A stretch of 64,000 bases of DNA. It comes from Cyanophora paradoxa CCMP329 (Eukaryota; Plantae; Glaucophyta). The position numbers and the translations under genes were made by a program. The notes beneath the pieces were generated by a model. That model did not search any database, was not told the origin of the DNA, and was given only the letters and a program-made list of their open reading frames with translations. The stretch is from the NCBI GenBank assembly GCA_004431415.1, contig QPMI01000511.1, positions 62,001 to 126,000 of the forward strand, read 5' to 3'. Positions 39,008 through 64,000 of the stretch are shown in pieces (within the stretch, counting starts at the first letter, position 1; each line of letters begins with the position of its first letter).

Positions 39008-39799
39008 TCACTGGCCGAAGTGCGACGGTCCCCACTCGAGGTCGGGGTCGGGCCTTGGGGGCCTCCGGCGGGGTACGATGCTCCCGCTTGCCAGCTCCAT
39101 GTACTCCCCCACGGGGTTGTCTTCGTCTGCGAGGTCCTTATAGTTGCCCTTTACGAGATCCGCTGTCGCTTTGCGCCAGCGAACGGCCACGTTGTACGTG
39201 TTGTCGATGATGTTCTGCACTGTACCCTCCATGGGTGTTAGGGAAGGTGTGTAGTTGAGAAAGGCGAGGTCTCTCTCGCGCAGACTCAATTCCCTTTCGT
39301 AGTACTCCACTGCGCTTGGGAGGGCCCTGAGCTCCACCGCGTGCTCGCCCGGGTCCGACGAGCTAATGAGCCCGGAGCGCTGCAGTGCGTCTACAGCCGC
39401 CCGCAGCACGATTTTGCCCACCCCCCGCATCGAATTCCTCTGCTCGGGCGTCCCGTATTCCCCCTGCGGCCCGTAATCGTTGTAGTAGCTTTCTATTTCG
39501 ACGGTGGCTGGCTTATTGCCGACCTGAGGCTGAACAGAGCCGTACACCCATGCCATGGCGTCATTGTCCGCTGAGCGGGCTTTCTTGGAAGGGGGCGGCA
39601 GCACTTCGATTTTGAACTCCCTGGTCCGTCGGTTGACGAGTGTTTTTAGATTGAGGGGGAGGCGCGTATCCCCGAATTTATCAGGAAAGAGGCGGTGTAG
39701 CTTAAACCACGCTTCCTGATCACCGTAGGTGTACGACATTTGCTCGCGGCTCGCTGAGAATTTATACCTGTACCCCCACTCCCGGTCGGGGTACCTCAT
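39008..39799 (-). CDS. Viral protein with GNAT acetyltransferase-like C-terminal domain
   Basis: Intronless, 263 aa. Motif-A-like MRGVGKIVLRAAV and motif-B-like VELRALPSAVEYYER. Confidence 0.55.
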   Translation of the reverse strand: MRYPDREWGYRYKFSASREQMSYTYGDQEAWFKLHRLFPDKFGDTRLPLNLKTLVNRRTREFKIEVLPPPSKKARSADNDAMAWVYGSVQPQVGNKPATVEIESYYNDYGPQGEYGTPEQRNSMRGVGKIVLRAAVDALQRSGLISSSDPGEHAVELRALPSAVEYYERELSLRERDLAFLNYTPSLTPMEGTVQNIIDNTYNVAVRWRKATADLVKGNYKDLADEDNPVGEYMELASGSIVPRRRPPRPDPDLEWGPSHFGQ

Positions 39800-40374
39800 T
39801 CGAGCCTCCTACGCTTCGCCTCCTTCTCTTCCGCTTCGCGTATGTACTGCTCCTGCCAGCGGGGGGGTAGCATCTCCAGGGGCATTGTGTAGTTCTCCTC
39901 GAGTGATTCCTGCCAGGGTAGCAGGGGCCGCGGCATCTGACGATTGTAACTGTCGCGGATGTGGAAGTAATCGACTACCCAGTTACGGAACACCTCCAAC
40001 GGTTGGTAGGGCTCGTTTGCCGTCGTCAGAGGCCGCTCGGCCGTCCACCACTTCTCGAAGATGAGCCGCTGAATCTCTTCTGGGAGGTGCGGTATCATGC
40101 TCTTCCGGCTCACGAATGCCATCCAGAGCTGTTTCAGTACGTTTATGATACCGTACTCCCCAAAGCCCCAGCGGTAGGGTCCGGCGGGCCGCATGTCCAT
40201 GCTATCCCCGAACGCGTTCATGGCCAAATAGAGATTCGGCTTCAGCTTGTTGTACGGAGGTACGTATCCATTGCGTTTGGCCCCCGTGTTCGCTCTTATC
40301 CAGGGGATCAAATCTCTAACGTTCTCCACCATTCCCTTCACCTCGTCCCTCGTTGTTAGCTCGGGGTATGACAT
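39796..40374 (-). CDS. Viral hypothetical protein
   Basis: Intronless ORF from MSYPELTTRDEV. It overlaps the next start by 4 nt and has the upstream motif ATTTCTCG. Confidence 0.7.
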   Translation of the reverse strand: MSYPELTTRDEVKGMVENVRDLIPWIRANTGAKRNGYVPPYNKLKPNLYLAMNAFGDSMDMRPAGPYRWGFGEYGIINVLKQLWMAFVSRKSMIPHLPEEIQRLIFEKWWTAERPLTTANEPYQPLEVFRNWVVDYFHIRDSYNRQMPRPLLPWQESLEENYTMPLEMLPPRWQEQYIREAEEKEAKRRRLE

Positions 40375-40417
40375 TTGCAATTGCACACATCGAGAAATTC
40401 TAAACGCTACTGCAACG

Positions 40418-41053
40418 ATGGACCTACAACAGGGGAGCGCGGCGTGGCACGCTGCGCGCCGCGAAAAGCTAACCGCCTCGAACTTTGCCGCCGCGTGCGG
40501 CATCAACCCGTGGAAATCCAGGGCCCGCCTCTGGGCGGAGCTGAGCGGGATCGCGGAGGAAAACAACTTTGACAACCCTGCCCTAACCTATGGGCATGAC
40601 TATGAGCCCCTCGCGGTCTCTATCTACAAGGCACTGAACGATAACGTGGACATTCAACACACTGGACTGCACGAACACAAAGAAATGCCGTTCCTCGCCG
40701 GGAGCCCCGACGGACTGATAGGAAATGATAGGATTTTAGAGGTGAAATGCCCGTACAAGGGCGAACTTTATGATAGAGTTCCTACCTATTACATGCCTCA
40801 ACTTCAGGGACTTCTGGACATCACGGGCCGCGAGTGGGCCGAACTTTTTTGCTTCACTCCTCTGCGCGTGCAAACGTGGTACGTCAGGCGCGACGAGAGG
40901 TACATCGAGCTCATCAGGAAGTGCTTACATCTATTTTGGATGCACGTCAAGGAGGGTACGCCGCCCGAGCCCTACAGCGATCGAATGAAGTCAGAGAACC
41001 TCAGCGAGGAGCAGGCGGCGCTGCGCGAGTTTAAGTCGTACGCCCTCCTCTAG
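40418..41053 (+). CDS. YqaJ / lambda-type exonuclease (viral recombinase nuclease)
   Basis: QGSAAWHAARREKLTASNF, YGHDYEPLA, GSPDGL, LEVKCPY and YMPQLQG form the complete PD-(D/E)xK YqaJ motif set. Confidence 0.95.
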   Translation: MDLQQGSAAWHAARREKLTASNFAAACGINPWKSRARLWAELSGIAEENNFDNPALTYGHDYEPLAVSIYKALNDNVDIQHTGLHEHKEMPFLAGSPDGLIGNDRILEVKCPYKGELYDRVPTYYMPQLQGLLDITGREWAELFCFTPLRVQTWYVRRDERYIELIRKCLHLFWMHVKEGTPPEPYSDRMKSENLSEEQAALREFKSYALL

Positions 41054-41104
41054 TGTCCCGACCCTCTCAGATATTAATTTAAAGATCTGGGAGGGTCGGG
41101 ACAC
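41053..41104. terminator. 20-bp stem / 12-nt AT loop hairpin between convergent genes
   Basis: gtgtcccgaccctctcagat-attaatttaaag-atctgggagggtcgggacac, with one G:T pair. Terminator function is inferred from position. Confidence 0.6.
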
Positions 41105-41139
41105 GTCTCTTGGTCGGACTCACCGTAGCTTGGTGTAGC

Positions 41140-44116
41140 TCAGGCCCAGGCCGGGTAGGCGCGTCTGTAATGAATCAGACCGCGCAGGATTTGGTCGAGC
41201 TGCTCGGTGCAGGGGGGCGGGAAGGCGAGGCCGCGGAGGGCCATAGAGACGTAGCGGAAGGGGTGGGGGAGGCGGCCCCTGTTATCCCACATGGCGTCCA
41301 CTATGGCGTTGTGGACGGTTTGCTCGGAGAGGGGACGGGCCTGCGCGCACCGTTTCAGGGCCCTCAGCAGCCCTCGAAGATGTTGGAGTTGGCGTGCACC
41401 AGGGGGAGGGAGGGCTGGGACGGCGGCGGCGAGCCCGGGGCCGAGCCCTGGGTGGCGAGGGCCTGCGAGGGCGCCGGCTCCAGCTCCATCTCGAAGACGC
41501 CGCCCTCGACGTCGACGGTCACGGGCGGCGAGGCCGGGATCGCGCCGGCCTGCTGCGTGGCGGGGACCTGAGCCGAGAAGTTCTCGAGCCGCCACTCGCG
41601 GCAGCCCTGGCACTCACCTGGACGAAGGCGGTGCGGTTGGCGACGGGCGGCGTCGGTAGGGCCTGCGTGGGGGCGTCACTTACAGAAGCCGAAGGCGCCG
41701 GCCTTGTGGGGCGGGGCGTCGGGGTCGCGGGGCGTGCTATAGGCCTCCGAGCCTTCCTCAGAGTCACTCACCGAGCTGAGAGGGTGCGGTGAGAAGAGGC
41801 CGAGGCGGGCCTTCTTGGCGGGCAGGAGGTGGGAGCCGTTGAGGGCGCAATCGGCGCGGTGGGCACACCTCTCTCCGTAGGTGGGGCAGAGGGCCGGGGC
41901 CGAGGGCGCCGGAGCCAAGGACGCCGGAGCCGAGGACGCCGGGGGCTGGAGGAGGCGGTGAGAGGGGCCGAGGAGGAGAGGAAGGGGGAAGGGCGCGGGC
42001 ACCGGCGCCTCGACGTCCCAGTCCGCCAGCTCGGGGAGGCCGTGCTCGTCGAACGCCAGCGCGGGCCGCCCGCTGAAGCCGAACGGGGCGGGGGGCGAGA
42101 GCGCGTTGTCCCCGACGCCCCAGACGGCGCTGAACGCCGCATCGTCCCAGCGCGCCTCCGCCTCCGCCTGGCCCTCGTCCCTTGCCTCGTCCACCTCCTT
42201 GGCAGAGAGCGACCCGATCTTGATGATGGAGGCCTGGATCAGCACAAACTCGCGCTGGAAGAATTGGACGAGCGGGATGGTAACTGCGGGAGAGGGGGTG
42301 AGCGGGGAGAGCGCGGGGCGCAGGCCAAGGGCGGGGGCGCAGGCCAAGGGCGGGGGCGCAGGCCAAGGGCGGGGGCGCAGGCCAAGGGCGGGGCGGACGC
42401 ACATTCGATGCCGTAGGCCACCTCCTTGATGTAGCGGCCCCGGCGGCCGATCTCCTTGGCCAGCATGCTGCACTCCTTGCGCGCCGGGTGGCCGTGGCCC
42501 CACTCCATGGCGATCATCGCCTTCGCCAGACGGACGCCCTCGATGTGCCACTCGTCCATCTCCGCCTCCAGCTTGGCGCAGATGCGCATCCAGAAGAAGA
42601 CGCGCTTGAGCTTGTCGCGGTCGAATTCGGCGTCGCCGCTCTTGCTGCCCCAGTCGCGCAGGTCCGTCTCCTCCGCCTTCTTCACCTTCTCGTACCAGCA
42701 CTTGATCTTCTCCGCCTGGCGCTGGAACTCGTCCGCCCGCGCCGTGAGAACGTCCGACTCCTCCTGCGCTCCGAGGGCCCGGGTCAGGGAGGAGAGGCGG
42801 GCTAAGCGGGGCGGCGGCGGACCGTGTGCGAGAGCTCGCCGACGATCACGGAGATGGCCGCCGAGAGGATCTCACGGGCGCGGGCCGGCCCGTTTGGGTG
42901 GCCCTCGCGCAGAACCTCCTCCAGCTTCAGCACGGCCGTCCGCATGAGATCGCGGTGGCGCTGGCGGGTCTCGTCGCTCCGGCCCTGATCCACGAGAAGC
43001 TGGAGCTGGGGCCGCATGCCGGAGTCGCAGACGCTGGCGTACTTCCGAAGGGCCGCGCAGGAGAGCACCTTCTGCACGCTGACCAGCCAGTACGCGTAGC
43101 CCAGCGGGCTCTCCGCGCTCGGGTTCTCTCCGACCTGCGGACGCGACCTTAGCGCGCGCAGGGGCAGGGGAAAGGGGAAAGGGCGGGCTCTCGCGCACGT
43201 AAATGTCATCGGCGCAGGAGAGGAACATGTGATCAACGACGTCGAAGAAGCCGCCGGACGGGAGCGTGCCGACGCCGTGGTACGCGCCGTTGGTGGTCTC
43301 GCCGGCGCAGATGCCGGCCTGGACGGTGACGGTGTACTGCGAGGCCGGCGGCCCCTCCTTCACGTAGACGAAGTTGAGGTCGTACTTCTTGGCGTACGTC
43401 GGGTTGATGCGCTTGGTGACGATGACGTAATCGCACCGAACGCCGAGGCCGGACGGGCTGGCCTTCTCCTTCTCCGTCACCGACGCCAGGCACTGATCCC
43501 GCGCGATCAAGAGCTGCGGCGGCCCGCGCGTGAGCAAGCGCGGGCACGCGAGCGCAGGGAAGGGCCCTCACCCCGTGGGCGCCGCCGCTGCCGGATTTGA
43601 GGTCCGCGAGGAACTCCTTCTGCTCCGGAGTGCCGGAGAAGATCGCGCGCGGATGGAAATCGCGATGGAGCGCGATGCTGTTGAAGCAGCCCGCCGCCGC
43701 ATTGTCGGACATCAGCAACAGCGCCACATCGCCGTGCGTGAAGCCGTACTTCGCCTTCACATACTCCGGCAGCTCGTGAATGCTGTAAGGCACGATCTGC
43801 GCGCGGGGCACGCGAGCCGGGGCATGTGAGCCGGGGCCGAAGCGGTGCGGGCGAAACCGCGAACCTCGTTGAACTTATTAACCGGCGTGAACTGGCCCTT
43901 GGTCTTCAAGCGCTTCGGGTGGCCGTCCGTGTTCTGGATCTTCTTCAGCCCGCCGAACGGCTCGAAGCGCGGCACGCCGGCCGAGTTGAACACGCTATCG
44001 CAGGTCATCGCGTTGAGCGCCTCCTCCGCCGATAGGCTGCCGAGATCGCGGGCTATGCTGTCCTGCTCGCCGGGCTGCTGCTGCTTCGCGCAGGAGCGGA
44101 AGGTCGCCGCCTGCAT
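41140..44116 (-). CDS. Intron-containing hypothetical protein within the viral region
   Basis: Exons MQAATF..KFNE | IVPYSI..AHG | LLIARD..DDIY | VGENP..SHT | EESD..YGIE | TIPLVQFF.. are joined by short GT-AG introns. No recognisable domain. Confidence 0.65.
42315..42390. repeat. 19-bp tandem repeat x4 (ggggcgcaggccaagggcg) inside an intron
   Basis: Direct reading. Confidence 0.9.
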
Positions 44117-44421: not shown

Positions 44422-45601
44422 ATGTCTCGGCTCGCGCTCCCTCCGGAGATCCCGGCTAAGCTGGCGAGGAACACGCTGTACGACGTTCTCTGCGTCGGCG
44501 ACAGCTTCGGCGTCGATTGGACGGTTTTCGAGGCCGGCATCAGCGACCAGGCAAAGGAGGCGCAGGCCCGGGCGCTGGAGGACGGCGTGCAGTTCAGCCC
44601 GAACAGCAAGGATGTGCTGCGCAAGACCGAGCTGGCCGAGCGCAAGCGCAAGCTGGCCGCGGCGCGGACCTTGAACCTCGAGGGCGCCCCCGGCCCGTCG
44701 GTGCAGTTCTCCATCGACTCCGTCCTGTCGCGGCTGCGGCTCGCGGAGGTGCTCGCTGCCTCTTTCTCTCTGCGCTCGCAGCGGCTGAGGCGCCGCGGCG
44801 CATCGCAGGACGCGGACGTGCGGGCGATGCACGCGGCGCTGAACATGACGGAGGAGAACTTCGACACGCCGAGCAAGCCGAAGCCCGGGCGCGATGCCGA
44901 CGCCCGCCGGCTGTTCGCGGCGCAGCGCCTGCGGCTGCTCATGGGCGCCGTGCCCCGGCACCTCGCCAAGGGCGAGTGGCGTACGATTGGCCTGCTGGCG
45001 GGCCCGGAGGAGTTCTACTTCAACCGCATGGCGGAGGCGGCCCCGCACCTGCTCTGGCTGCTGGTGCTCAGCTCGGACCCGGCCTACACGCCCGAGGTGC
45101 GCCCCCGGCCCGCGCCGCCCGGCCGCCCCTCCCCGCCGACCCCCGCCGGCCCGCAGAGGCTGGCGAAGGGCATCATGGGCGTCGAGGCGCGCTGCATCAT
45201 GCGGAACAGCCGCGCGTTCATCACGCGCCACGAGAGCTCGGCGGTCTGGGGCGAGCGGCCGGACACCGGAGTCCTCACCGACGCCTACGCCATCCGCATC
45301 GTGCTGGAGGCGGCCTGCCGGACGTGCCGGGACCGCCACGGGCGCCAGGGCATCTGCGCCTTCGACCTGGTTCCTGAGTTCGAGGTGCCCGGCGTCACCA
45401 TCGGCGACCGCGTGCAGGTGCGCCGTTTCTATTTGGATGCTATTTAGATGCTATTTAGACTATTTAGATGCCATTTAAACCCCCTCGCAGGTCATCCGCC
45501 GGTGCTCGATGCCGGACTCGCACGGGCGGCCCATGATCCACGGCGCCGTGAAGTTCATCACTGAATTCGCACACACCGAGACAGTACAGCTAGTGATGTA
45601 A
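44422..45601 (+). CDS. Intron-containing hypothetical protein (possibly the 5' part of the helicase gene)
   Basis: Starts MSRLALPPEIP. GT-AG introns at ~44749-44808, ~45097-45156 and 45418-45490. It ends abruptly at an LTR-like segment. Confidence 0.6.
45430..45480. repeat. Degenerate 11-bp tandem repeat (tatttagatgc) inside an intron
   Basis: Direct reading; about 5 copies. Confidence 0.8.
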
Positions 45602-46456
45602 CTGGGGTGTCTGACTGTGTCATGTCGAAAGGTAACAATTTAGGCTAAGGCGCAATGCTAGCCATCAGAAACCGGACAGGGTGGAGCTATTGTACTGAGG
45701 AAAGCGACCTACACACACCTAGCAACGCTACTTACTCCTACCTAGAGAGCCAAATCAGGACAGAGCAACCATAACCCCCCCTCAAGACGTGGGAGCCTAC
45801 AGGAGAGAACCCAGGTATAAGCAAGGATATGGGGTTGGAGCCGCGCAGCCTGAACTATAGCCCTCCATCTGATAGGGAAGATGCGCACTAAGGGAGCAAA
45901 ACCAGCTAACCCCAGGGAGGGCCGGAAACCGGAGCCCGTGAGAGCCCGGGTGAAAACCGGCGGGCGCACAGCATCGCCGGCCGAAGCCGGCGACCTGTGC
46001 TCCTCGGCCGAGAGATACCTCCTCCAGCTGGCGCGCGTGCGCACGCGGAATCCGCTGCGGCGGGGGTTGGGAGGCCCCGGGCCGCCCGAGTGCTCAGAAG
46101 CACGTCGCCTCGCCAGGAATCCAAGCATCTGTGCGGCAGCGACGCCCACGGCCGCGACGCGGGCGTGCACTCACACGACCGACGATCATCTGCGCGGGCG
46201 CAGCACAGGTCGCCGGCCCCATAGCCGCGGGCGGCCGATCGTTGCCGCAGAGAAGTGCTTGGGCTGAACGAGAGAGCAGCTGCTGAAGCCGCCGCTGGTG
46301 TCCGCTGGAGTGGCTCGCCGAACCGACCCACGGAGCGGATTCCTAACGGACGCGCGGCTAACCGGCTAGAGGAGGGGTGGAGGCACCGCCAAGGTGATTC
46401 GCGGCAGCCGGAGAGGCGCCCAGCGGGCAGGAGCCCGCCACCTACTTTCTCTCCAG
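45597..46456 (-). mobile_element. Possible truncated LTR-retrotransposon 3' end (polypurine tract plus ~180-bp LTR)
   Basis: The minus strand reads cttgagggggg (PPT-like), then ttatgg...ccccagttaca. The composition is non-coding and unlike the flanks. No second LTR is seen. Confidence 0.3.
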
Positions 46457-46470: not shown

Positions 46471-49400
46471 ATCTGCGGCGCCGTGAAGTACGTGGTGCCG
46501 CGGCGCACCCTCGCCCTCACCTTCTTCGTCCCCGTCTTCGACAAGGCGGCCGCCGCCGCCGCCGCCGCCGCCTCCCGCCCCCGCCCCATGCTCGCGGCCG
46601 CGGAGTCCTCGGATTCCGACTCGGATTCCGAGGCGGAGCGCGAGGCCGAGGCCGCCGCCGCGGCCCGGGCGCTGGACTTCACGGAGGAGGAGCTGGAGCG
46701 GGCGCGGAGCCTGCCGCGCGCCGGCCAGGCGATGGCGGCGGCCTTCCAGGCGGCGATCGGCGAGGCGACGGCCTCCGCCTCGGGCGCCCGGGCCGGCGGC
46801 AGCAAGATCACGGCGGAGGGCCTCGCGCGCGCCATGCGCGTGGCCCAGGCCCAGGCCCAGGCGAAGGGCAAGGGCAAGGGCAAGGCCGCCTACATCGACC
46901 TGCGGTTCGAGGAGGAGGAGGCGGGTGCCCCGGCGGCGCGGCGCGATCTCGGCGAGGAGATGGAGGCGGCGGCCCCCCAGCCGACCGGTGCGCCCTCCCC
47001 GCCCCTAATTTCTGAGCCTAGGGCGTTCCAGAGGCGCCAAGGAATGACCCTGCCCTCAGAGGAGGAGCTGGAGGCCGAGCGCGCGATGGAGGAGGAGGCC
47101 GCGCTGGCGGCGGCGGCGGACGCGAAGGCCTCGCGCGAGCTGGAGGTGGCGGAGGAGTACGCGATGGAGCTGGAGCGCGAGCGCGAGCGCGAGGGCGAGC
47201 CCGATGCGGAGCTGGCGGCGACGGTGGAGGCGGGGGCGGGGGACACCTTCGAGCCCGAGCCCCCCGTCGACGAGTTCTACCCCCTCCCGCCCTCCCCCTC
47301 CCTCGACGGCGCCCCGCCGCCGCCCATCGAGGAGTTCTCGGACGACGAGCCCGGCGACGCCGGCCCCAGGCCGCCCTCGTCTCCCCCGCCGCCCGCCCGC
47401 CCCCGTGCCCCCCGCCAGCCCCGCCGCCTCCGACGTCTCCTGGCGCCCGAGCGGCAACCCCTCGGCCTTCAGTCCCTTCCGCCCTCGCAGCCCTCGCAGC
47501 GCCCGCCGCCCTCCGTCCAGGGTACCCCCTCGCCCGCCCCATCCCCTCGCCGCCGCGGGGCACGCCCGTCGCCACGCCCGCCTCCTCCCTCGGCCACATG
47601 CCCCTCCGCCCCTCCGGCCCCCGCGCCGGCCGCCTCTCCCGCCGGGCCCAGCAGCGGCGCGAGCGCGAGCGGCAGCTGCTGCGCGATCAGCGGGCGGAGG
47701 CGGAGGCGGACCACGACGACGGCCAGGCGTCGGAGAGCGACGGCGAGCCGCCGCGCGCCACCAGGCTGGAGCTGGCGCGGGCGGAGCTGGCGGCGCAGCC
47801 GCGCGAGGCGCCCGAGATCGACATGTCCAAGTACGACGACGTGACAACGTACAGCAAGGACAACAAGTCCAAGAAGGAGGCGGCCATTCAGGATGCGCTC
47901 CGCCTCTTCGTCAAGAACAACGTGCGCCCCGCCCCCTTAGCTGCGCGCCCCGCCCCTTAGAGGCCGGAGGCGGCCGTGGCCCAGCTGCTTAAGGCGCTGG
48001 GCCCGAGCCGCCTTCGGCCGGTGCGCCCCCCTCCCGCGTTCGAACCCCGCTAACCCCCTTTTGCCGGCGCAGCGGATCGTGCGCCAGAGACCCTACGGCC
48101 CGAACTCCCCGCCCACCTTCTACGTCGAGCTCCCGAACCTCTTCGTGTACGACAAGGTCAGCGCGAACAGGCACGCCGGGCGCGGGACGATGAAGGAGGT
48201 CATCCAGCTGCTGGCGATGACCTTCCACAAGACCTACGAGTCCAACCCGGCTCCTTCGAGTTCACCTTCTCGAAGGAGGTGCTCTCGGGGCGGACGCGCA
48301 CGTTCGTGGAGGAGTCCCTCCAGCTCGAGGACGTCTGCCCGAGATGCCCGTCATCCCCGGCTTCGCCTTCGCCTGCGACACGCGTGCGCCGCCCGTACCC
48401 CTGCGCCCCGCCCGTACCCCCGCCGACGCCCCTTGCGCAGATTTCGTGGTGCGGGCGCCGCAGGACAGCACGGGCAGCGCCTGCGTCCTCGTCATGACGC
48501 ACGAGGAGGCACGGGAGCGGTACGCGGGCTACATGAACACCTGCTACATCCAGGGGCGCCTGCCCGCGGGCATCGAGGAGGCGACCGAGACCTGCGACTG
48601 GCCCACCGTGTACGGCATGCTGCACCCCTTCATGCCCAACGTCGTCAAGCACCTGGCGGACAACGGCTACGTGACGGCCGACGAGTTCGGCTACGCGGCG
48701 GCCGTCCTCTACGCCTTCAACCTCGTCGGGCCGTGGAACTTCTGCGACAAGCCCGTCTTCGACCGGGAGCCGCGCGCGGAGATGGAGCCGCCGTCCGAGG
48801 GCGCCATGCTGCAGTACTGCGGCATCATCAAGGGCCAGTCGGGCACGGGTGCGCCCCGCCCCCGCCATTCCCTCTTCCTTTTCCTGAGACCCCGCGTGCG
48901 CAGGCAAGTCGATGGTGACGCAGATCATGACGGAGTGCCTGCCGCCAAGCCGCGTCTGCGTCTACCGCCCCTCCAAGGGCTCGGCCTTCTCGGAGCACGG
49001 CGGCGAGGAGGCGATCTGCATGGTGATGGCGGAGGGCCTCGACCCGCGGGCCTGCTCGGAGGAGGAGCTCAAGATGCGCTCCGGCGACGCCTACTCCCGC
49101 AACTTCAAGAACGTCCGCGGCGACGATGTGCGCACCAAGGCGACGCGCAAGGTGCTTGTCATCGTCTGCAACAGCTTCCCGCAGGTGCGCCCGTTCCCTT
49201 CCCTCCTTCTCCCGGCGCCCTTTCTCACCTGCCCCGGCGCAGCTCGAGAACCGCATGCTCGAGTTCTTCGCCCGCGTCGTCCTCATCCCCCTCGACCACA
49301 AGCCGGCCAAGAAGCGCACCTACCTCCACTCCGACATCCGCGAGAACGAGCTGCCGGCGCTCATGGTCGCGGCCTTCACCTTCGCCTGGAAGATCATCCA

Positions 49401-52853: not shown

Positions 52854-52863
52854 TGGGAAAGAC

Positions 52864-53410: not shown

Positions 53411-53963
53411 AGTACTAAGTAGGTGGTATCGATATCTAGCTAGCTAGCGCTAGCGCTTGCTTAATTAATTAACTGAAAGGTTGCGGAGGTTGCGGACGCG
53501 TCACAATTCCGTCATGGGTTTTCCGTCATGGGCTGGAACTTGGACTCGGGACTCGGCCGGGAATTCTCCTGGTAAGTTCGAGACTTGAACAAGAACGACG
53601 TACCCCTCCTATGACCGTTCTATACTACATTAAAGTATTCATTGATTGTGAATAACGATAATGTCATAGCAACTTCAGTATGATGTCATAGCAACTTGAA
53701 ATTACCTTCAAGTCGAATAGAGGGGTACAGAGTCGGTACGTTAGACTTGACAAAACACGTGTATTTTTTTACGCCGAGTTTTGCGGCCGAGTCCCGAGTC
53801 CAAGTTCCAGCCATGACGGAAAACCCATGACGGAATTGTGACGCGTCCGCAACCTCCGCAACCTTTCAGGTAAATGTCAGGTAACTTCAGGTTAATTAAT
53901 TAAGCAAGCGCTAGCAAGCACTAGCTAGATATCACAGCTCTACCTTGCCCAAGTTGATGGTAT

Positions 53964-54356: not shown

Positions 54357-54594
54357 ACTTCTTGCTCATAAATGAGAAAAGCGCCTCAAAGTCTGCCTTT
54401 ATCTCCTCCTTGGACCAGGATGTCACCTGATCCGGGTCACCTGAGAACGGCGCATCGAACGCCACGTGGAGCGATTTGCAGGCCTGGGCAATCATTGGCT
54501 CGGGCCATGCCAGCTCGATCAGCTGAAGGTAGATGTTGAGGGCCTTGTCGAGCTTGGCGCCCTGGGAGACCAGCTGGGAGATGGCGGGCTCCAT
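54193..54594 (-). CDS. Viral hypothetical protein (3' part overlaps the basic ORF)
   Basis: Starts MEPAISQLVSQGAKLDKALNIYLQL. ATTTCTGA upstream. Confidence 0.5.
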   Translation of the reverse strand: MEPAISQLVSQGAKLDKALNIYLQLIELAWPEPMIAQACKSLHVAFDAPFSGDPDQVTSWSKEEIKADFEALFSFMSKKYAEIEAAKDAEAQGGEDAEAPEAPAQGPAGDQGTEVQGAGPPAEGEGQGRPASA

Positions 54595-54744
54595 GGTGGG
54601 TAGACTAGCATCAGAAATGGCGCCAAGTTCGAATCTATTTTTTTACCGGGAGAGTTTGGCCCGAGTCCCAGGTCCAAGTTCCAGCCCATGACGGAAAAAC
54701 CCATGACGGAATCTTTCGCGTCCGCGTCACTTCTCCCCCCCTCC

Positions 54745-54789
54745 TCAGGTGAGCGCTCACCTGAACCTCACCTGAACGGCCTCTATAAG
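54745..54789 (+). promoter_or_regulatory. Promoter-like element: perfect 20-bp palindrome tcaggtgagcgctcacctga, another TCACCTGA, then TATAAG
   Basis: Lies upstream of ATG 54851. TCACCTGA recurs upstream of the next two genes (55355, 55737). Confidence 0.55.
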
Positions 54790-54850: not shown

Positions 54851-55320
54851 ATGGCCCTTGTTGCCCAGTTCTTCGTCGAGGAATACACCGTGCGCGTGAT
54901 CGGCGAGCCCATTGACCGCGAGGTGGAAGTTCTCAAGGACGGCAAAGTAGACGACTGCAAGACTGCCCGGTAAGATCCTCCTCATGAAGCTCTCCGACGA
55001 TGGCTTCTCCTTCACCCTGGTCTCCTGCGCCAAGACCCAAACCGGACAGACGGCCTACATCGTGACCTTCTCCGCGGGGCGCCTGAACTGCACGCATGTT
55101 CAAGTACCCGAGTGGGCCTCGTTCTGCGCGGCGATCTCTCCCTCAGGCCGCTCCCTCGCCTACACATTCTTTGAGGGTATCAGTGCAACATCTGGGTCTT
55201 GCGGAGGCAGATGGGCTCCCCCAGATGAAGGTCGATCAGCTGCACCAGCAGTGCGGCTACCCCTTTAGCCTTGACGATAGGATGATTTCCTTTGATCTTG
55301 ATGGCTCTGTATCCCTCTGA
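54851..55320 (+). CDS. Viral hypothetical protein (frameshifted)
   Basis: MALVAQFFVEEYTVRVIGEP continues through ORFs 54984 and 55096. Confidence 0.5.
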
Positions 55321-55428
55321 AATTGAACGCGTGTTTTCTGACTTCGTCTGAAGCTCACCTGACGCGGGGCCTTAAGAGGGGGCACGGGGCCTCGGTTCCT
55401 CACACTTTAACCGTAAGCCAACGAGAGA

Positions 55429-55800
55429 ATGTGCGCCCCCAAGTACTTCACCTGCTGCCTGACCTTCGGCATCTTCGAGTACGAGGCCATGGAAGAGGAT
55501 CTGGACGAGAACGGCGAGATCTGCTTCAACTACTGCAGGCTGCTGCGCAACATCTCGCTGGAGTGCCGCAAGGGCGACTGCTTCCAGCACATCATGCTCA
55601 ATCCCGCCAAGAACGAGATCACCCTGTACGCCGTCGCCTGCCCCAGCGCCAGATTTAGACTCTCGAATATTCGCGTAGCCGCGATCGAAGCCCTTCCCCC
55701 CCCAGTGAGACGAATTGAACACGTGTTTTACCTGAATCACCTGAGCGCTCAGCTGAAGTCAGGTGGGGCGCCCTTTAAATATTTTCTAGCGCTAGGCTGA
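55429..55800 (+). CDS. Cys-rich viral hypothetical protein (true end probably ~55670-55710)
   Basis: MCAPKYFTCCLTFGIFEYE... with GC3-rich codons up to ~55650. Confidence 0.55.
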   Translation: MCAPKYFTCCLTFGIFEYEAMEEDLDENGEICFNYCRLLRNISLECRKGDCFQHIMLNPAKNEITLYAVACPSARFRLSNIRVAAIEALPPPVRRIEHVFYLNHLSAQLKSGGAPFKYFLALG

Positions 55801-55822: not shown

Positions 55823-56618
55823 ATGGCCACCGTCCGCAACGCCAACGAGATCGACCCGCCAAGCTCGCCTTCGAGATCGACGCCACCGCCGCATCAAGGC
55901 CAAGTACGACGGCCTGCAGGGCCTCATGATGTACGCGCCGCCCATGGTCACCATCAACCCTGCATCAACACAGAGCAAGGCAAGGCGTGGAGCGACGAGA
56001 AGAAGGCCTTCGTCATGGAAGAAAACGGCGGATTCTACACGCTGGACCTCACCGATCTCAGCGCCGTCGACGGCCAGACGAACCCGCCGCGGACGAGTTC
56101 CTCAAGCTGCTCGAGGCCCTGGACGCGAAATTCTGCGAGTTCGTGCAGCAGAACCAGGCCAAGCTCAAGGTCTCGCCCGGCCGCTCCCTCTCCAAGGACC
56201 AGATCTCGGTGCTGCAGACCCCCAGCGTGCGCATCAAGGTCGACAAGGAGTCGGGCCAGGCCTTCTACAAGTACCTCAACATGCGCATCCGCACCCAGAC
56301 GATGGCGGGCAAGCGCAAGACCATCCCCGTCGTCGACATGTCCAACTACCTCATCACCGAGCGCGCCACCATCGCACCGGCGACCTGGTGGCCGCCCTCG
56401 TCAAAATCGACACCGCCTACGCCATCCCCGAGGGCAAGTTCGGCCTCAAGTGGTCCTTCCTCGCCGTGCAGCAGTGCAAGGTCGGCGCCTTTCGCTTCGC
56501 AGGCCGCACGCCCGAGCTGGCCTTCAGGCCCTACGACAACGAGGCCAGCTTCGAGCCCTACCTAAACCCGAGTCTATGTACACAGCCCCATGCAGTAGCT
56601 CGGACGAATAAATTGTGA
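55823..56618 (+). CDS. NCLDV-type single-stranded DNA-binding protein (OB-fold), frameshifted
   Basis: The stitched protein contains FYTLDLT, EFLKLLEALDAKFCEFV and GDLVAALVKIDTAY..GKFGLKWSFLAVQ, the pattern of T7-gp2.5-like NCLDV SSBs. Confidence 0.7.
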
Positions 56619-56651: not shown

Positions 56652-57443
56652 TCAAAGGCCGTTGAACTTGCCGCCCACCGCCTTGGGCTCCGCCGCCGTC
56701 GAGGCCGCCGCCTCCGTCACCTCCTTCATTACCTCCGGGTTCGCGTTCGCCGCGTGCACCGCCAGCACCGTCTGCACAAGGGCCATCCCCAGGCGCGCCT
56801 CGGGCCCCAGGGTCACGTAGCGCGAGTACTTGATCACCAGCTCCTCCAAAATCGGCTGCACCTGGTCCATCGAAGAGAGCGTCGCCTGCCCGAGCCCGTC
56901 GAGCTTCAGGCCGATCGGATCGTACGCCTTGTTCAGGTGCTCCAGCGAGTGCATGCCCGCGATCAGAAAGAGGCGCGCCGCCTCCAGCGAACCCCGCGTG
57001 CTCAGCTCGCGCTGAATCTCCTCGTACTCTTCCTTCAGCTCGTCCAGCGGCGTCGCCAGGCTCAGCTTCTTCGTGGACGTAAGCTCGCCCCGAACGAGCG
57101 CCGGTACTGCGCGATCTGCCGCAGAACCTGCTTCTTCTCGTCCACGTCACCTGCGCCTCGTCCGCGGCCGCTCCTGCAGGTCGATTCCAGCGCCTTTTTC
57201 ACGCTCTGCTCCTTTTTCTTCGTCATTTCGATGTGCTCCTGCACGCTGAAGCTCGCGCCCTTGCTCGGCGCCGTCGGCGGCACGCGGGCCCGTCGCCCGG
57301 CAGCGCCATCCTGTCGCCTTCGGCGCCTTCTCCCCTTTTCCTTGCCCTCCTTCGCGGGGCGGCCTTCTTCCGGGCTGCGGGATTCCACGGGGTTCGGCCC
57401 GTCCACGGCCAGCGCCTCGAAGCCAAGCATCGCGAGGGTCCAT
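56652..57443 (-). CDS. Conserved NCLDV protein (DUF5767-like), frameshifted
   Basis: ELKEEYEEIQREL...LEHLNKAYDPIGLKLDGL...LEELVIKY...PEARL...VHAAN matches the recalled family pattern E.LN..yDP..lkLdG..EL..KY..PE..L..H..N. Confidence 0.7.
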
Positions 57444-57485: not shown

Positions 57486-58917
57486 TCAACGAAGAGCTCG
57501 ACGTACAGCCACAGCTTCTCGCGCAGCTCCGGCCCGCTGCCGTAGAGAGCGAGCGCACGGCCGAGGCGTACTCCTGCGGCAGCCTCTCGAAACCGAGTCG
57601 TCCTTCGCCTTGATTAATTCCGCCTCCGCGTTGATGTGCTCCTGAACAGAACGATGACCGCCGTGGCCCCTATGCCGCGCAGCGACTGGATCTGCGCCCG
57701 CACCCCGTGCTCCTTGGCCTCCGGCTCCAGAGGTCGAGGAAGCGGCCCCAGCGCGCCTCGATCTGCTCGCCCAGCGTCGCCTCCGTCGCTGCCATGTGCT
57801 CGCGTGGGCCTCAGAAATTACTGACGGGTCGGAGGGCCCGGCTGCTAGGTCGTACATCTCCGCCTTCCGGGCGTTCGTTTCCGCGAGCATGGTAATCTGA
57901 CTGTTCTCCGTGTTCCGGACGAGGGCCTGGAAGGCTGTCTGAATTGCAGTCTGCGATGCTTCGACATACCGGCCACCGTCCCTTTGCACGGAGCGCTTCC
58001 ATGCGTCCTTTCTCGAACGGCGTGGCAAGCTGGTTGCTCTGCAGCGCAGGGAGCGGGTTGACGACGCGGGGCAGCAGTTCTGGTCCGCGTAAGGCGTGGC
58101 CGTGGGCAGGGCCGGGCCGCGCGTCCCGGCTGATCGAGGAGCATGCCCCGAACGGATTGCCCCGGCTGAAGTCCACGTCGTTGCGCCCGTAGGGCTTGTT
58201 GACGGCGCTGCTGATGTTGGCCGTCTGCGCGTTGAACATGGCGAGAGGTCGGGGTGTAGCCGCGCGCAGCCCTGCGGGTTCGCAGCCGTCTGCCCGTAGC
58301 GACCGGCCGGCCCGAGCAGGTTCTCCTTCTCGATCTCTTCCATCGTCTGATCCAGCCGCGCTCGCGCGCCCACTTCATGACGAGATCGTCGTAGTTCATC
58401 GGAAGAAAACCTTCTGGTATTTATCGAAGCGCTGAATTTCGATATCCTGCTCGATCATGTTCGTAATTCGCTCCAGCAGCTCGGGTATATTCCTCGAGCA
58501 TTTGGCGACGCCCGGCTGCTTCAGGTCGAAGGCCGTCATCGCCCACTGGTCGAAATCGCGAATCATGATTTCCTTCCGCAGCTGAACGCGTTCTCCACAT
58601 CCTCCTCGTTGATCGTGCGGCCGGTTCGCGTTCTGCAGCTGCTGTCGGATGCCATGCGCATCAGCTTCTCCATCGAGGGCGTGTACTTCATCGCGGGCAG
58701 GGTCTTCGTTTCCCCCCGCTGAGCCCAGGCCGCGCCTTATCCTCGGGCGTGTAGATGTCCGCCTTCGTCCCATCTACGACGGGCACCTCGGGCATAATCG
58801 TGCCCGGAAGGAACTTGTTCACGATGCGTCCATGTCGGCCTTCAGGTCGTTCTTCAGCGACTGGCGCTGCTTCTTAGAGCCCTCCCCAATGTCCATCATA
58901 GAGTGGCCCTTCGTCAT
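57486..58917 (-). CDS. Large viral hypothetical protein downstream of MCP (multiple frameshifts)
   Basis: Coding-like sequence runs continuously across frames from MTKGHSMMDIG and includes DFDQWAMTAFDLKQPG..PELLERI..DDL. Confidence 0.55.
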
Positions 58918-58994: not shown

Positions 58995-60343
58995 CTAATG
59001 GAAGCGGCGGTAGGCGCCGCCGTTGGTGAAGGTGATCTCGTTGTAGTAGCGGCAGTAGATGTCGGCCACGGGCTTGTCCGTGCCGTAGGTCTTGAGCGTG
59101 GTGAGCGTGAGCTCGATGGTCTTGAAGGCGCCATGTCGAGGCCGCCGAACATCTTGGTGTTGTCGGCCACGTCGTGCCGAAGGGAGCGAGTAGATGAACT
59201 CCGTCCCGAACTGGCCCACGTTGCGGGGCTGGATGTCGCTGCTGTGCCGTCGTGGGTCGCAAGGGTCGTGGGGCCGTGTCGTTGCCCGACCACGGGTGCG
59301 GGTGCAGCGCGTCGGCCACGTCGGCCGCTGCCGTCCCGTCCATCGAGGTCACGCCCGCAGCAGCTCGAGGTGCTTGCGGGCGGGGCGTGCGTGTGCTCCT
59401 TGTGCGCGATGGCCGTGCGCAAAAAGTGCGCGTCGTGGTTCGAGCTATCGAGCACCTTGATGTTGTCGCACTTCAGCTCGATCTTGTCGAGCGGGCGGAA
59501 GCGCAGAAGTGCTCGCCGTTGTCGGTGTGCGGCTTGTCGCGCACCACGATGATCAGCTCGTAGCAGATTCCGGTGAAGGGCAGGCGGATGGCCTTGCGAC
59601 TCGAACGAGACGTGGTAGTGCTGCACGTACTTGCCGCCACGTGAACGAGTTCGGGTGCAGCGCCAGCTCGCGCGAGTCGATGTGCACGTAGCGCAGGATG
59701 AGCTTGGTGTCCAGGCTGACGGTGCTCGTCAGGTTGGTGTTGGTGTGCAGGCCGCCGTCCACGTACGAGGCCGTGATCTCCTTCTGCGAGGCGTACGTGA
59801 TCTGCAGCTTCATGTCGTTTCCGGAGCAGCGGAGCTTGTGGAGCGGCACGGCGAACTTTCGACCGTGGCCGTCGCGATGCGAATCGGTATGTACAGCGTG
59901 TTCGAGCCTTGCCCCGGCGGCGCAGCGCTGGTGCGCCCAGAGGTTGTTCACCATGTCGACGTGCTGGACGACGGACTTGTCGTCCTCGAACTCGCGTAGA
60001 TGGCGTCGTAATGGCCGTCGTACTCGTGGATCAGCTGGCGCCACGAGATCTTCACCTTCTTGGCAGCACGTAGCCGGCCTTCGGGATGTAGAAGTGGTCC
60101 GCGTTCGTCAGCGCCGGCAGCGTCACCTTGAGCCAGGAGTCGTTGAACATCGGCGCCGAGTGCGGGATGACGATGTCGACGGTCTGGCGAAGCTCACGCC
60201 CGACTGCACGGGGCTCACTCGAGCACCTCGTCGACGAACGGCATCGCCGTGTCGAGGTCTCGTGCACGTGCACCGACGCATCGGAGCTGCGCAGCGAGTG
60301 GTGCAGGGCGGTTCGTGGGGGTGGAGATGAGCGCGGAAGCCAT
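58995..60343 (-). CDS. Double-jelly-roll major capsid protein, NCLDV-like (multiple frameshifts)
   Basis: About 450 codons. Motifs: TVDIVIPHS..FNDSWLKVTLPAL, FAVPLHKL..MKLQITY, LRYVHID..E, CYELIIVVR, LDKIELKCD, IYSLP, GGLDM..FKTIELTL and DIYCRYYNEITFTNGGAYRRF*. The last motif parallels the NCLDV C-terminal YA..YN.L.I.NG. Confidence 0.85.
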
Positions 60344-60388
60344 GGTGGTTTAGGGGTGCGTTGAGAAAATTTTTTGGGTGGGCCTACG

Positions 60389-62588
60389 TTATTAGAGGGC
60401 GCGTCCCCCGTCTCGCAGGTCCGCGTCGTACGCCTCTGCGGAGTGCGTCGTGATGCAGACCGTCGCGTGTGCGTTAAGATACCCAGGCAATCCTTGGCCC
60501 AACATGAAGTAACGCTCTGGATCCAAGTTCATGAGTTGCTGGGCCGCTCCTTACGCGCCGCACACGCTCATAAAGGGTGCCCTTTGCCGCAGAATCCGAG
60601 CGGGTCGCTTCTCGCTCAGCTTCGAAGAATTTCACGACATCCCGCCAGGTCCGAAATATCACGGTGCTGCTCTGCTATCGTGCCTGTGCCTGTTGATCCA
60701 GCTGCCTGGCATGGGCTATCGATGCCAGTGGTTGAATCGATTTCTTCTGCAAGGTATTTCGCGCACGGCGGCGTCCCCTGCAGCGCGCGCGATTTCGGCG
60801 ATACGCTCACAAGAATCCCTCCCGGCGAGCCGATTGCCGGCGCTCCGCTCCGCTCCTCGTCATGGGATGTCTGGACTGGCTGGAATTGCCTGGAGCCCGG
60901 AGCGAATTTCTTCAGCAGCCCCCACGGCGAGCTTCTGTCGCCTCTTTCACCTTCTTGGCGGCCAGTTCAAGCGCATCGTTTACGTCCATGGTCGTATACC
61001 CGGGTCTCCGCCCATATCCTTGTACGCGGCCCTGCGCTTGTCCATGGCTTCCATCTCGCGCGGGGACGAGGGGGCGATTTCTATCCCCGCGTTTGCGAGT
61101 TGAGCCTGGACGGCGACGGGCACTGCTCGAGCACGGCCCTTGCCGGCAACGGCCACCGCCTCGGCCGCCACCACCTCTGGCGGGCGCGAGGGCCCCGCCT
61201 GCGGCTCGGGTGGCGGCGGGGGCGGCGGGGGGGTGGCGGGGGCTGCTGCTCCGCTGGGGGCGCCGACGGCCGGGCCACCGTGTCCGGGGGCTGCGAGGGG
61301 CCGGGCTGCGGCTGCAGCGGTGGCGTCTTCGGCCCGGGGGGCGGAGGCGGCGGAGGCGGAGGCCCCGGAGGCGGGGCCCCCCCTTCGTCGTCGGAGTCTG
61401 ACTCGATCATTTCGTCTCTGGGTTCCTTGGATGGCAGGGCCTTCTGAATGAGGGCCTCGCGCGCGCCCTTGCCCGCCTTGATTGCTCTGCCCATGGCCGC
61501 CTCCGGGAAACTGGCCTCGATGGCCTCGTTGTCCCCGTCCGTGATGCGCACCTTCTGCTCGCGGCGGGCCTTGATGTACTTTTCCTTGTCCATCCGCTTC
61601 TTCGCCCGCCTCTCCCTGGGCACGTCGCGCTGGCGGCTCTCGTCCGGCCCCGGCCCCTCGCTGTCCGAGCTCGAGGGCGGCTCGGCCTGGGCGAAGGGCT
61701 GGCGCGTGTTGCGGTTCGCGTAGTCGGGGTCGTACTTCCCTCCGATCAGCTCCTCGGGCTTCTTGTTCTCGCGCGCGTAGATGCTCGTGGGCTTGAACTC
61801 CTCGCCGTTGATGATGTACTTGTAGTAGTAGTACGCGTCCTCGAGGTTCATCGGCCCCAGCGTCTCGAGGCGCTTCTTGCGCTTCAGGAATTCGGTGATC
61901 TGATCCTCCTTCGACTTGCAGAACTCCCGCACGCCCGGCAGCACCGTCAGGTTCTTGCCGTCCACGTCGCAGGCGCCCGCCCCCTTGGCCTTCAGGTTCG
62001 CGGTGAAGGCCGACTGGCCCATCAGCCAGGCGCGGAAGCCCTCCTCGTACTCCTCGTCGAGGCTCGACTCCATCTGCTGGAACTTGTTGATGTAGTAGGC
62101 GTTGGCGATGGCCTGCGCCTCCACCTCGGCGAGCTTGTCCGATTGATCGCGCTCCTCGAACCGAATTTCCGGCGTGGCCCTCGCCAGCGCCGTCTTCATC
62201 AGCTGCTGAAAGTGTGCGTACTTGTCGCTCTCGAAGGGCGTGATGTGCGAGTCCCCGCCCCCCGGGATCGCGAGCACGTTGCGCGGCGCGAAACGCGAGG
62301 CGAGCCCCCTCATTTGCACTTCTTAGGAGCCGGCTTTGAAATTTTATCGGTCTTGGCCTTGTCTTCCTTCCCGTCCTTCTTCTCGGCCCCCTTCTTCCCC
62401 TGCTTCGTCGGGCGCATCGCCACGAATATTTCGCCGGGCGAGACGTCCTCGTACAGCGGCTTCGGTCCCTTAGGAAATTCGGGCGGGCCCTTCAGCTTCT
62501 CCTTCGCCTCCTTCACCTCCGCCTTGGTGGGCCGCTCCTGCCCGTTCGTGGGCGCCTTTTTCGCGGGCTTCTTCTGCGCCTCCGGCAT
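60389..62588 (-). CDS. Large viral hypothetical protein upstream of MCP (frameshifts at ~62315, ~61200 and below)
   Basis: ORFs 62310-62588 and 61081-62319 plus downstream frames. The core reads GFRAWLMG..LPGVREF..LGPMNLEDAYYYYKYI, followed by a Pro-rich linker. Confidence 0.6.
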
Positions 62589-62609: not shown

Positions 62610-62926
62610 TATGGGTTGGCGCCCCCGTACGTCTCGGGGAACTGCCTCTCCCACCTGCGCATGGCCGCGTCCCTCTGGTCGCGAAGCTACGGTAGGCCGC
62701 GGCCCTCTGCCCCATCACGATTTGCCAGAGCCGTGCACGGACCTCGTCCTGCAGTCTGTACACCCAATCGCGAATGTTCTCGACGATATCCGTCGGCAGC
62801 GTGGCCAACCCCGCCTTGATCTCGGGTACATCCGTGGGATCCTCTTCGAGCGTAAGCTTCTGCATGCGAGCGCGCAGCATCTCAATTTGCGTATCGATTG
62901 GGGCCAATAAGGATAGATCGAGACAT
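62610..62926 (-). CDS. Small viral hypothetical protein (frameshifted; ends uncertain)
   Basis: MLRARMQKLTLEEDPTDVPEIKAGLATLPTDIVENIRDWVYRLQ. ATTTCTCA upstream. Confidence 0.45.
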
Positions 62927-62938
62927 CGGGGTACGGGG

Positions 62939-63198
62939 TCACTGAGAAATAACACTGGGTCGGAAGAGGAGGTACCCCACCAGGATCCCCGCTATAATCC
63001 AGAGGGGCGACCAGTCGCGCTCCGCCGGCGCGCCCCCGGCGTCACCATCAGCTGCCCCGCCCGGGCCTGCGCAGGCCGTGCGTGCGTGGTCCGCCCAGTG
63101 CGGGCGCGGGAACTGCTCCTGCGGCATGCGCTCGGGGTAGACGCCGTCGAATCGGTTCTGCATTTGTACATGTCCCTATCGAACAGCAGGGAGGCCAT
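62939..63198 (-). CDS. Small viral protein with C-terminal TM (frameshift ~63165)
   Basis: MASLLFDRDMY continues to DWSPLWIIAGILVGYLLFR. Confidence 0.55.
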
Positions 63199-63201
63199 TT
63201 C

Positions 63202-63805
63202 TCAATTTGGGAGGGACTTAGAAATACTGCCCGTGAGCTCCCTGTCGCGGATCCTGCGAAAATCCGCGAAGAGCCCGCGCGCGCAGCGCCTGCAGACGAG
63301 GCGGGCCCGCCCGCCCACGCGCGCCACCGAGATCTCGTGGCCGAACTGCAGGTGGCCCGGGAAGCAGGTGGGGGGTAGTCGCAGACGAAGCAGTGAACTG
63401 GGCAGTTGCGCCGCCGGATCACATCTGAATTGCAATCGCGGCTCGCTCGCCGCCTTCCTCGGCGCGCGCTGGCGCTTGGGCTGGCCTCGAGCGGGCTCGG
63501 GTCGCCCTCCGCGGGGGCCGCCTTGGCCTTCTGCCGGGCGCCGCGGGGGGCTTCGGGCCGTAGGGGCTGCCGGTGCCTGGCTCGAGCCGGCGGCCGGGCC
63601 AGCGGCGTCGGTCACCTGCGGGCGCTGCGGCGGCGGGCTGGTCTCCCGGGCCCCCTCCTCGAGGACCCGGCGCATGAAGCGCGAGACGCGGCCGCTGCGT
63701 GCAGGAGCCGACGGCCACCTGGCGGTTTTCTTGCTGGTACGCACCTCGACGTTGGCGAGCTTGGTGTTGGAGCGGCACTTGAAGCAGTAAGTGGGCGTGC
63801 TCCAT
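63202..63805 (-). CDS. DUF5679-like zinc-ribbon protein (frameshifted; may be two genes)
   Basis: Stitched sequence YCFKCRSNTKLANVEVRTSK.NRQVAVGSCT...RVSRFM. A further C-x2-C (VCRRC) lies downstream. Confidence 0.6.
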
Positions 63806-64000
63806 GGGATCTAGCTACGGGTGTAGACAGCCTTCAGAAAAAAGTGCGTAGTAGCGGACGGCGCACCGGGGGCAGCAGACGTAGACGCCCGCCTTGAGCA
63901 CCCAGCGCGCTTGGTCTGGGGCAGGCGGCAGATTTCGCAGCAGAGGGCCTCGGCTTACGGCACGAGGATCCCATCTGGCGGGCCTCCAGAAATCGCAACG

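Follow-up and report, generated by a model that had tools for sequence, protein, structure and literature searches.

The right part of a 64,000-nucleotide stretch of the genome of the glaucophyte Cyanophora paradoxa CCMP329 (contig QPMI01000511.1, positions 62,001 to 126,000; hereafter the window) was found to contain a viral region of at least 25.2 kb, which starts near position 38,760 of the window and runs past 64,000. This element probably belongs to a family of small viruses that have a capsid of the Nucleocytoviricota type and are integrated in many copies in the C. paradoxa genome; the virus is likely temperate, dependent on the nucleus and of mriyavirus grade. The observations behind this reading are an integration-like boundary, a family of copies, intact capsid genes, splicing and an asymmetry between the two arms of the element.

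The capsid gene is located in the right arm:

58,995-60,343, minus strand: gene for the major capsid protein (MCP), a double jelly roll of 456 amino acids in intact copies (PF16903, structure model, paralog alignment).

Analyses of this gene and its intact paralogs revealed that the MCP is a double jelly roll of the Nucleocytoviricota type, in agreement with a preliminary description made from the sequence alone, which had noted motifs in the style of nucleocytoplasmic large DNA viruses (NCLDV). The intact MCP P0004 matched the Pfam family Capsid_N (PF16903) with 32 bits against a cut-off of 24, and its neighbours in the Atlas were MCP clusters of Nucleocytoviricota (alignment-free score 0.97-0.98, with a recognition value of 1993, under the tool's mark of 2300). 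A structure model built from an alignment of 85 rows reached a predicted local distance difference test (pLDDT) score of 77 and a predicted template modelling (pTM) score of 0.80, compared to pLDDT 31 for a single-sequence fold; it leans toward NCLDV, since 77 of the 85 rows are NCLDV sequences. Comparison with solved structures gave Z-scores of 28-37, the top 13 entries being capsids of Paramecium bursaria chlorella virus 1 (PBCV-1), faustovirus, iridovirus, Emiliania huxleyi virus, African swine fever virus and melbournevirus. A PBCV-1 capsid chain matched with Z 36.9 (root-mean-square deviation 2.3, 350 residues aligned), whereas the capsids of Sputnik, mavirus and PRD1 scored about 20. In BFVD, the top ranks were occupied by NCLDV proteins (best NCLDV capsid, E 9e-27), and an adintovirus capsid appeared at rank 48 (E 2e-14).

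The identity of the MCP to those from outside Cyanophora was 14-21%. The preliminary description had proposed to place this protein by structure and phylogeny. The fold sided with NCLDV capsids over those of virophages and PRD1, and a FastTree phylogeny of 113 MCPs (matches of 370-520 amino acids, with 5 Cyanophora rows, 13 open reading frames (ORFs) of the loci and no labelled mriyavirus in the set) placed the Cyanophora clade on a branch of 2.09 without a supported sister. The ranking of the 1.84-billion MCP search was biased, because its query alignment (A1) contained the NCLDV-type P0040; when rescored with a Cyanophora-only profile, those matches reached at most 50 bits. The two nearest loci with genomic context (L002 and L003) bear giant-virus-type genes. 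Locus L001 was rejected as a relative, being an unrelated phage contig. A 10-kb IMG/VR contig carried six MCP-like ORFs in a row (L005:1381-10083). No relative of the intact MCP was found in IMG/VR, the JGI metagenomes or the INPHARED phages, and these blanks are weak because the search requires exact short peptides.

The element is one of at least twenty near-identical copies in the C. paradoxa genome. Close MCP gene models were found on 20 other contigs, with which the contig depth ratio given below agrees, and models that were 55-62% identical or fragmentary were found on 7 more. The MCP subfamilies of 55-62% identity occur in the same genome, and full-length frames are kept in many copies. 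The order of YqaJ nuclease, 113-amino-acid gene and MCP seen in the window was repeated in two other copies, and on 7 other named contigs the 113-amino-acid gene and the MCP gene lie 7-10 gene models apart. All named members of the YqaJ cluster, which includes the YqaJ protein of the window, and of the MCP clusters are C. paradoxa proteins. Some copies have another gene upstream of the MCP gene (P0010, P0011, P0002, P0019), and two MCP models lie at a distance of five genes on one contig. The idea that a contig of a free virus had contaminated the assembly was rejected, as the copies lie on many host contigs and the depth ratio was stable in three runs.

The MCP gene of the window was aligned with the intact paralog P0012, and 432 of 437 aligned codons were identical, with 18 breaks (17 of them deletions) and 0 stops. 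Short-read contigs restored missing letters in the right arm (among the 12 rows listed). The frameshifts are therefore likely errors of an unpolished assembly in a repeat. Decay was rejected as their cause, given the lack of stops, the dominance of deletions and the existence of intact copies. No sequencing run contained more than 0.47 of the region's words, and three listed runs contained next to none, which is no evidence either way.

The left boundary was recognized by a change in contig depth:

38,760-39,007, no strand: left end of the element, a conserved non-coding terminal segment (contig depth change).

From about 33,524 to 38,790 the window was covered by single-copy contigs with 0 differences in three runs, at depths of 92, 21 and 39. 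To the right of about 38,790, depth climbed to about 3500, 620-640 and 700-1300, and the contigs over about 38,810-39,000 had depths of 3501, 619 and 1298. The resulting ratio of element to flank was about 18-38 in the three runs; contigs pool all copies, and their depth is not a copy number. Because single-copy depth jumps there, the start of the element is placed near 38,760, about 250 bp to the left of the earlier estimate of 39,008. The junction between host and virus is deduced from a unitig overlap of about 30 nt, since no contig has 31 nt on each side.

The 211 of 289 six-frame segments of at least 60 amino acids that lie right of 33.9 kb were scanned with Pfam, together with 35 PHROG and 32 NCBIfam queries. 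In addition to the MCP gene, the right arm contains:

54,851-55,800, plus strand: two short ORFs, no family match (Pfam, PHROG, NCBIfam).
55,823-56,618, plus strand: frameshift-broken gene, described earlier as similar to single-stranded DNA-binding protein (SSB) (reading frames).
56,652-57,443, minus strand: DUF5767 protein, frameshift-broken (PF19071, E 1.2e-13).
57,800-58,899, minus strand: gene or genes downstream of the MCP gene, matching residues 405-640 of P0002 with 10 breaks and 0 stops.
60,370-62,588, minus strand: large low-complexity gene (ORF 61,081-62,313, continuing to about 60,370) and a lysine-rich ORF of 92 amino acids (ORFs, paralog comparison).
63,419-63,805, minus strand: DUF5679-like short gene, frameshifted (PF18930, E 0.03, below cut-off).
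63,815-63,974, minus strand: last exon of a cysteine-rich (zinc-finger) gene running beyond the window (read-through; CAG acceptor at 63,977-63,975).

The DUF5767 assignment of the preliminary description was borne out, and this protein also matched proteins of NCLDV-capsid-bearing loci (E 6e-10 to 4e-9); a homologue search, weak in that it depends on exact short peptides, returned none. The DUF5679 assignment is weak, its family match lying below the cut-off. The protein encoded downstream of the MCP, which may be Tlr6F-like, had no usable match in the Atlas. The exon at the edge of the window was compared with a 438-amino-acid ORF of L094, chosen by a VLTF2-type motif, and showed a weak similarity (7 of 16 residues identical, pairwise E 8e-4); a homologue search with this exon found nothing. 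Right of 54 kb, runs X15 and X17 yielded long unspliced contigs that cover most of 54.1-63.5 kb, one of which spans the MCP gene (58,996-60,346), such contigs being unable to show strand or expression level. The edge gene has an acceptor, and the right arm is thus almost but not completely free of introns. A T-rich motif was present 45-10 nt upstream of 17 of 21 intronless starts, compared to none of 3 starts of intron-bearing genes and 60 of 521 background ATGs.

The left arm has a different organization:

39,008-39,799, minus strand: intact ORF of 263 amino acids, variable cargo (ORF; depth below core).
39,796-40,374, minus strand: intact ORF of 192 amino acids, apparently missing from some copies (ORF; joint 39,777-40,370 in DNA contigs).
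40,418-41,053, plus strand: YqaJ/PDDEXK (lambda-exonuclease-type) nuclease, intact, 211 amino acids (PF09588, E 2.8e-28; PHROG 434, E 9e-40).
41,364-44,116, minus strand: intron-rich gene L1 (seven GT-AG introns with RNA support, within the gene or directly behind it, and an eighth that is inferred).
44,422-45,608, plus strand: intron-bearing gene L2, about 348 amino acids (frame open to residue 348; second intron predicted).
46,588-50,567, plus strand: multi-exon gene with a likely SF3 helicase core at 48,443-49,890 (motifs after intron removal).
50,617-53,157, no strand assigned: cluster of short, mostly intronless ORFs.
52,512-52,853, minus strand: gene of 113 amino acids (cluster of 15 members from C. 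paradoxa).

The YqaJ nuclease had been named in the preliminary description and is now supported by PF09588; the exact-short-peptide search returned one match of 27% identity. The 263-amino-acid ORF, which has a motif resembling that of GNAT acetyltransferases, had no match in Pfam, PHROG or NCBIfam and none meaningful in PDB. At least ten GT-AG joints were found among those listed, only in X15 or X17 and all left of 52.6 kb, which shows that these two runs include spliced transcripts of the family, though perhaps of other copies than this one. In L1, the joints were seen in X15 only (41,164-41,351; 41,552-41,618; 41,661-41,771; 42,283-42,403; 42,762-42,822; 43,513-43,572; 43,796-43,865), as was the L2 intron 45,418-45,490, while the joint 52,429-52,503 occurred in X17 only. 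A minus-strand GT-AG intron (40,862-40,928) was spliced in X15 inside the plus-strand YqaJ gene, and is antisense read-through from L1. Removal of introns 48,849-48,903 and 49,185-49,242 leaves a helicase core of 445 amino acids without stop, in which the Walker A motif GQSGTGKS assembles across the first intron (55 nt); Walker B is not canonical, and the likely SF3 assignment is made from motifs. The 55-nt intron was skipped in X15 and also in the DNA runs X3 (depth 2010) and X5, and some genomic copies are thus without it. Contrary to the compact genes of the preliminary description, the left 9.5 kb consists of intron-rich genes.

The arms also differ in GC content (0.705 vs 0.637), and L1 and L2 had no viral homologue in Pfam, PHROG, NCBIfam or a profile comparison with NCLDV-capsid loci. 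Together with the inverted repeats at the joint of the arms and the lack of a visible ATPase in the window, these differences could point to a composite that is no longer infectious, in which an intron-rich module derived from the host or a transposon was fused, at the central repeats, with one carrying the capsid gene, the whole spreading inside the genome like a transposon. We regard this as rather unlikely, as the arms are linked at similar spacing on 7 other contigs, the left arm has a likely SF3 helicase and adjoins YqaJ, and full-length MCP frames are preserved in many copies, also in subfamilies diverged to 55-62% identity.

The repeats of the element, to which no strand is assigned, are as follows:

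41,053-41,104: palindrome (hairpin) of 52 nt after YqaJ (self-BLAST).
53,210-54,745: central repeat cluster, including two ORFs (53,964-54,594, minus strand) (repeat search, Tandem Repeats Finder (TRF), self-BLAST).
53,210-53,327: repeat A (repeat search; four copies of a repeat of about 55-100 nt cluster at 53.2-54.7 kb).
53,342-53,410: 8-nt tandem (TRF).
53,431-53,559 and 53,784-53,933: palindrome with 129-bp arms (self-BLAST; DNA fold -188.8 kcal/mol).
54,643-54,745: inverted repeat D (repeat search).

The central cluster is likely an origin or the joined ends of the genome. At the hairpin, summed depth was 4-8-fold higher, loose ends occurred before 41,054 in X5 and X15, and a back-joint 41,120-41,038 was seen in X15. 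In other copies, the hairpin stands in tandem or adjoins unrelated flanks at 41,054, and the unit 41,038-41,120 is possibly a mini-element or an alternative terminus. No Rfam match was obtained. In one X15 contig, the 29 letters past 63,974 matched the sequence that begins at 40,929, with 28 of 29 letters agreeing by eye. In X15, position 40,929 also serves as a donor at other joints, and a CAG acceptor, a triplet type present at 2.5% of positions, lies at 63,977-63,975. Since this joint links 63,974 to 40,929, its template has the 64-kb part upstream of the left end, which hints at a circle, a tandem or a rearranged copy.

The best MCP matches that can be placed in context are giant-virus capsids, giant-virus regions have been reported in C. 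paradoxa (PMC12344493), and the 'Ariadnavirales' are likewise polymerase-less, nucleus-dependent Nucleocytoviricota that retain YqaJ and SSB (bioRxiv 10.64898/2026.08.29.747986), so the element might be a fragment of a large giant virus residing in the genome, or an ariadnavirus-like reduced branch of Megaviricetes, that was multiplied by duplication. This is quite improbable. Ariadnaviruses exceed 200 kb and are described as having no D5-like helicase (bioRxiv 10.64898/2026.08.29.747986); according to the gene numbers, no more than 14 gene models follow the gene at 62 kb on the contig, although the contig may simply end; and a small unit would suit both the more than twenty dispersed copies with one left end and the splice joint that connects the two ends. 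A giant-virus insertion of more than 100 kb is unlikely.

Families of PolB, integrase, protease and RNA polymerase were absent from the Pfam, PHROG and NCBIfam scans of the window, as the preliminary description had stated for pPolB, RVE integrase, protease and RNA polymerase. The same scans returned no RuvC-like resolvase. Two proteins of the window may be Tlr6F-like, and tens of insertions sharing a fixed end suggest an integrase. Both points would suit a Nucleocytoviricota-like Polinton-like virus (PLV) of about 25-35 kb (Zora/Zephyr/VC40 grade; Bellas and Sommaruga 2026), with an RVE or tyrosine integrase right of the window, in place of a mriyavirus. These groups combine NCLDV-like MCPs with SF3 helicases, terminal repeats and integrases, and mriyaviruses are described as having no integration genes; in the same host, 366 PLV-type MCP hits have been reported (PMC10120064). 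We consider the PLV origin unlikely, if slightly less so than the composite, because DUF5767, YqaJ and the VLTF2-like finger point to Nucleocytoviricota gene content, no integrase or pPolB was found in the 25 kb, and the six C. paradoxa MCP representatives given in PMC10120064 are, by eye, unlike the MCP of the element.

The reading of a small temperate virus family of mriyavirus grade has to be weighed against several points. The MCP model was built on mostly NCLDV rows, no PLV capsid was among the solved structures listed, PLV capsids resemble NCLDV ones too (PMC10120064), and the MCP tree offers no supported sister. Neither A32 ATPase nor VLTF3 was detected in 812 window segments with profiles built from 20 (A32) and 40 (VLTF3) sequences of loci that carry an NCLDV capsid gene, a scan in which frameshifts can conceal short matches. 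No HUH family matched in the window, the one HUH-pattern match falling at the broken DUF5679-like start, and a motif scan of the window gave no credible integrase motif. The SSB of the preliminary description found no database support (Pfam, PHROG, NCBIfam or NCLDV-locus profile scan) and stays putative; its D5/SF3 helicase has SF3-like motifs in the open core and had no profile match in the Pfam scan of window segments. The upstream motif and the starts were picked after inspection of the starts, the RNA status of X15 and X17 is the tool's guess, none of the runs that contain the region being recorded as RNA, and the hint of a circle comes from a single loose end of 29 nt in a single run. Contig depth, as stated, differs from copy number, and viral genes of C. 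paradoxa were enriched among methylated, silent genes (PMC12344493).

According to the favoured reading, the left arm (helicase, L1 and L2) would be transcribed by RNA polymerase II of the host and processed by its spliceosome, as an early or latent programme in the manner of host genes. Replication would start at the central palindromes, with a host DNA polymerase working alongside the SF3 helicase, the YqaJ nuclease and the putative SSB, and would pass through a circular or concatemeric intermediate. The intronless genes, with the T-rich motif 20-40 nt upstream of the start, would form a late capsid programme. Each new insertion would share the same left end, near 38,760, and the packaging ATPase, the late transcription factors and any HUH protein or integrase are predicted right of 64,000. 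A bolder version holds that the element is a temperate virus that is active to this day and represents a new lineage branching deep at the root of Nucleocytoviricota, with tens of proviruses in a cultured glaucophyte, a bipartite genome (a spliced, host-like arm for replication and an intronless one for the capsid), introns gained or lost between copies, and exit as a circle with the internal palindromes as virion ends; this is conceivable, and we hold it with considerable doubt.

The left 34 kb of the window are eukaryotic, GC-rich and dense in introns. A protein kinase gene (minus strand) and another whose end encodes a SEC-C-like cysteine motif were recognized by eye among the host genes (11,000-13,400 and 32,680-33,853), and many host introns apparently begin with GC instead of GT. 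A likely DIRS-type retrotransposon lies between identical 149-nt repeats at 14,264-23,349, with long ORFs bearing reverse-transcriptase-like motifs (14,976-21,023) and a tyrosine-recombinase-like ORF extending to 22,081 (by eye); a duplication of at least 300 nt was found near it, at 22,620/23,787. The segment 33,861-38,759, which adjoins the element on the left, is single-copy, has a GC content of 0.55 and fragmented minus-strand frames without family match, and is perhaps an old insertion. CpG is not depleted in the element.

Among known systems, the class Mriyaviricetes (Yaraviridae and 'Gamadviridae'; defined in PMC11253617) shares with the element an NCLDV-type MCP and a PDDEXK nuclease; the likely SF3 helicase (SF3 or SF2 in the class) and the absence of DNA and RNA polymerase from the 25 kb in the window would be further common traits. 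Gamadviruses carry SSB, which in the element is only putative, and Phaglo-G is an integrated, GC-rich mriyavirus relative between short tandem repeats (PMC11253617). Genomes of the class measure 35-45 kb (PMC11253617), compared to at least 25.2 kb for the element, whose right end lies beyond the window. Unlike these viruses, its 25 kb shows no ATPase, VLTF3, RuvC or HUH, and its MCP is unplaced; spliceosomal introns and 20-40 genomic copies are features of the element that the available text of PMC11253617 does not describe for the class, and none of the GTDB contigs named in the available part of the mriyavirus table of that source was among our 27 loci. Of the integrated mriyavirus or sister lineage proposed earlier, the analysis supports a small integrated virus whose capsid is of the Nucleocytoviricota type and whose part inside the window lacks a polymerase; formal membership in Mriyaviricetes is given somewhat less than an even chance.

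The NCLDV-like PLVs (Zoravirus VC102, VC134, VC218, Zephyrvirus and VC40) have genomes of 15-30 kb, an NCLDV-like MCP, helicase-based replication and terminal repeats; they are known from metagenomes, and the main text of their description mentions no Cyanophora, glaucophyte or intron (bioRxiv 10.64898/2026.06.19.733378). Zora, VC134 and VC218 often have an RVE or tyrosine integrase (bioRxiv 10.64898/2026.06.19.733378), and none was seen in the window. Punuivirus of Chlamydomonas resembles the element in being integrated and in its two modules, a latent one that is rich in introns and host-like and one for the virion that is governed by an AT-rich viral promoter motif; it differs in its 506 genes and own RNA polymerase (bioRxiv 10.64898/2026.10.09.758095), whereas the element has a physical split into two arms, 25-45 kb and many copies. 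Introners have been reported in dinoflagellate viral elements (PMC12166617).

The suggestion that the virus was probably undescribed in this host is largely refuted. Regions related to Mriyaviricetes, which may be the same family as the element, have been reported in one sentence on a Glaucocystophyceae assembly (bioRxiv 10.1101/2025.04.19.649669), and methylated giant-virus-like regions are known in C. paradoxa (PMC12344493). The former source treats such Nucleocytoviricota insertions as mainly accidental, and its available text gives no copy family, introns or expression (bioRxiv 10.1101/2025.04.19.649669); the accessible literature on such viral elements was found to describe neither the copy number nor the introns or expression of this family. 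A mriyavirus-like element in a glaucophyte is thus largely anticipated in print, and the novelty lies in its two-armed, spliced architecture, in the introns that vary between copies and in the prospect of testing it in culture.

Gene calling in PMC10120064 was prokaryote-style, on the premise that such elements are intron-free; together with unpolished repeats, this approach would miss or break half of the element. Yaravirus is described as the sole isolated mriyavirus, and replication and integration in the class are deduced from gene lists. The presence in a laboratory alga of 20-40 copies with intact capsid genes, apparently transcribed, would allow direct experiments on induction, on the structure of the virion, on the mode of replication and on the mechanism of insertion, and the intron polymorphism between copies at the active site of the helicase offers a way to watch intron gain and loss in a DNA virus.

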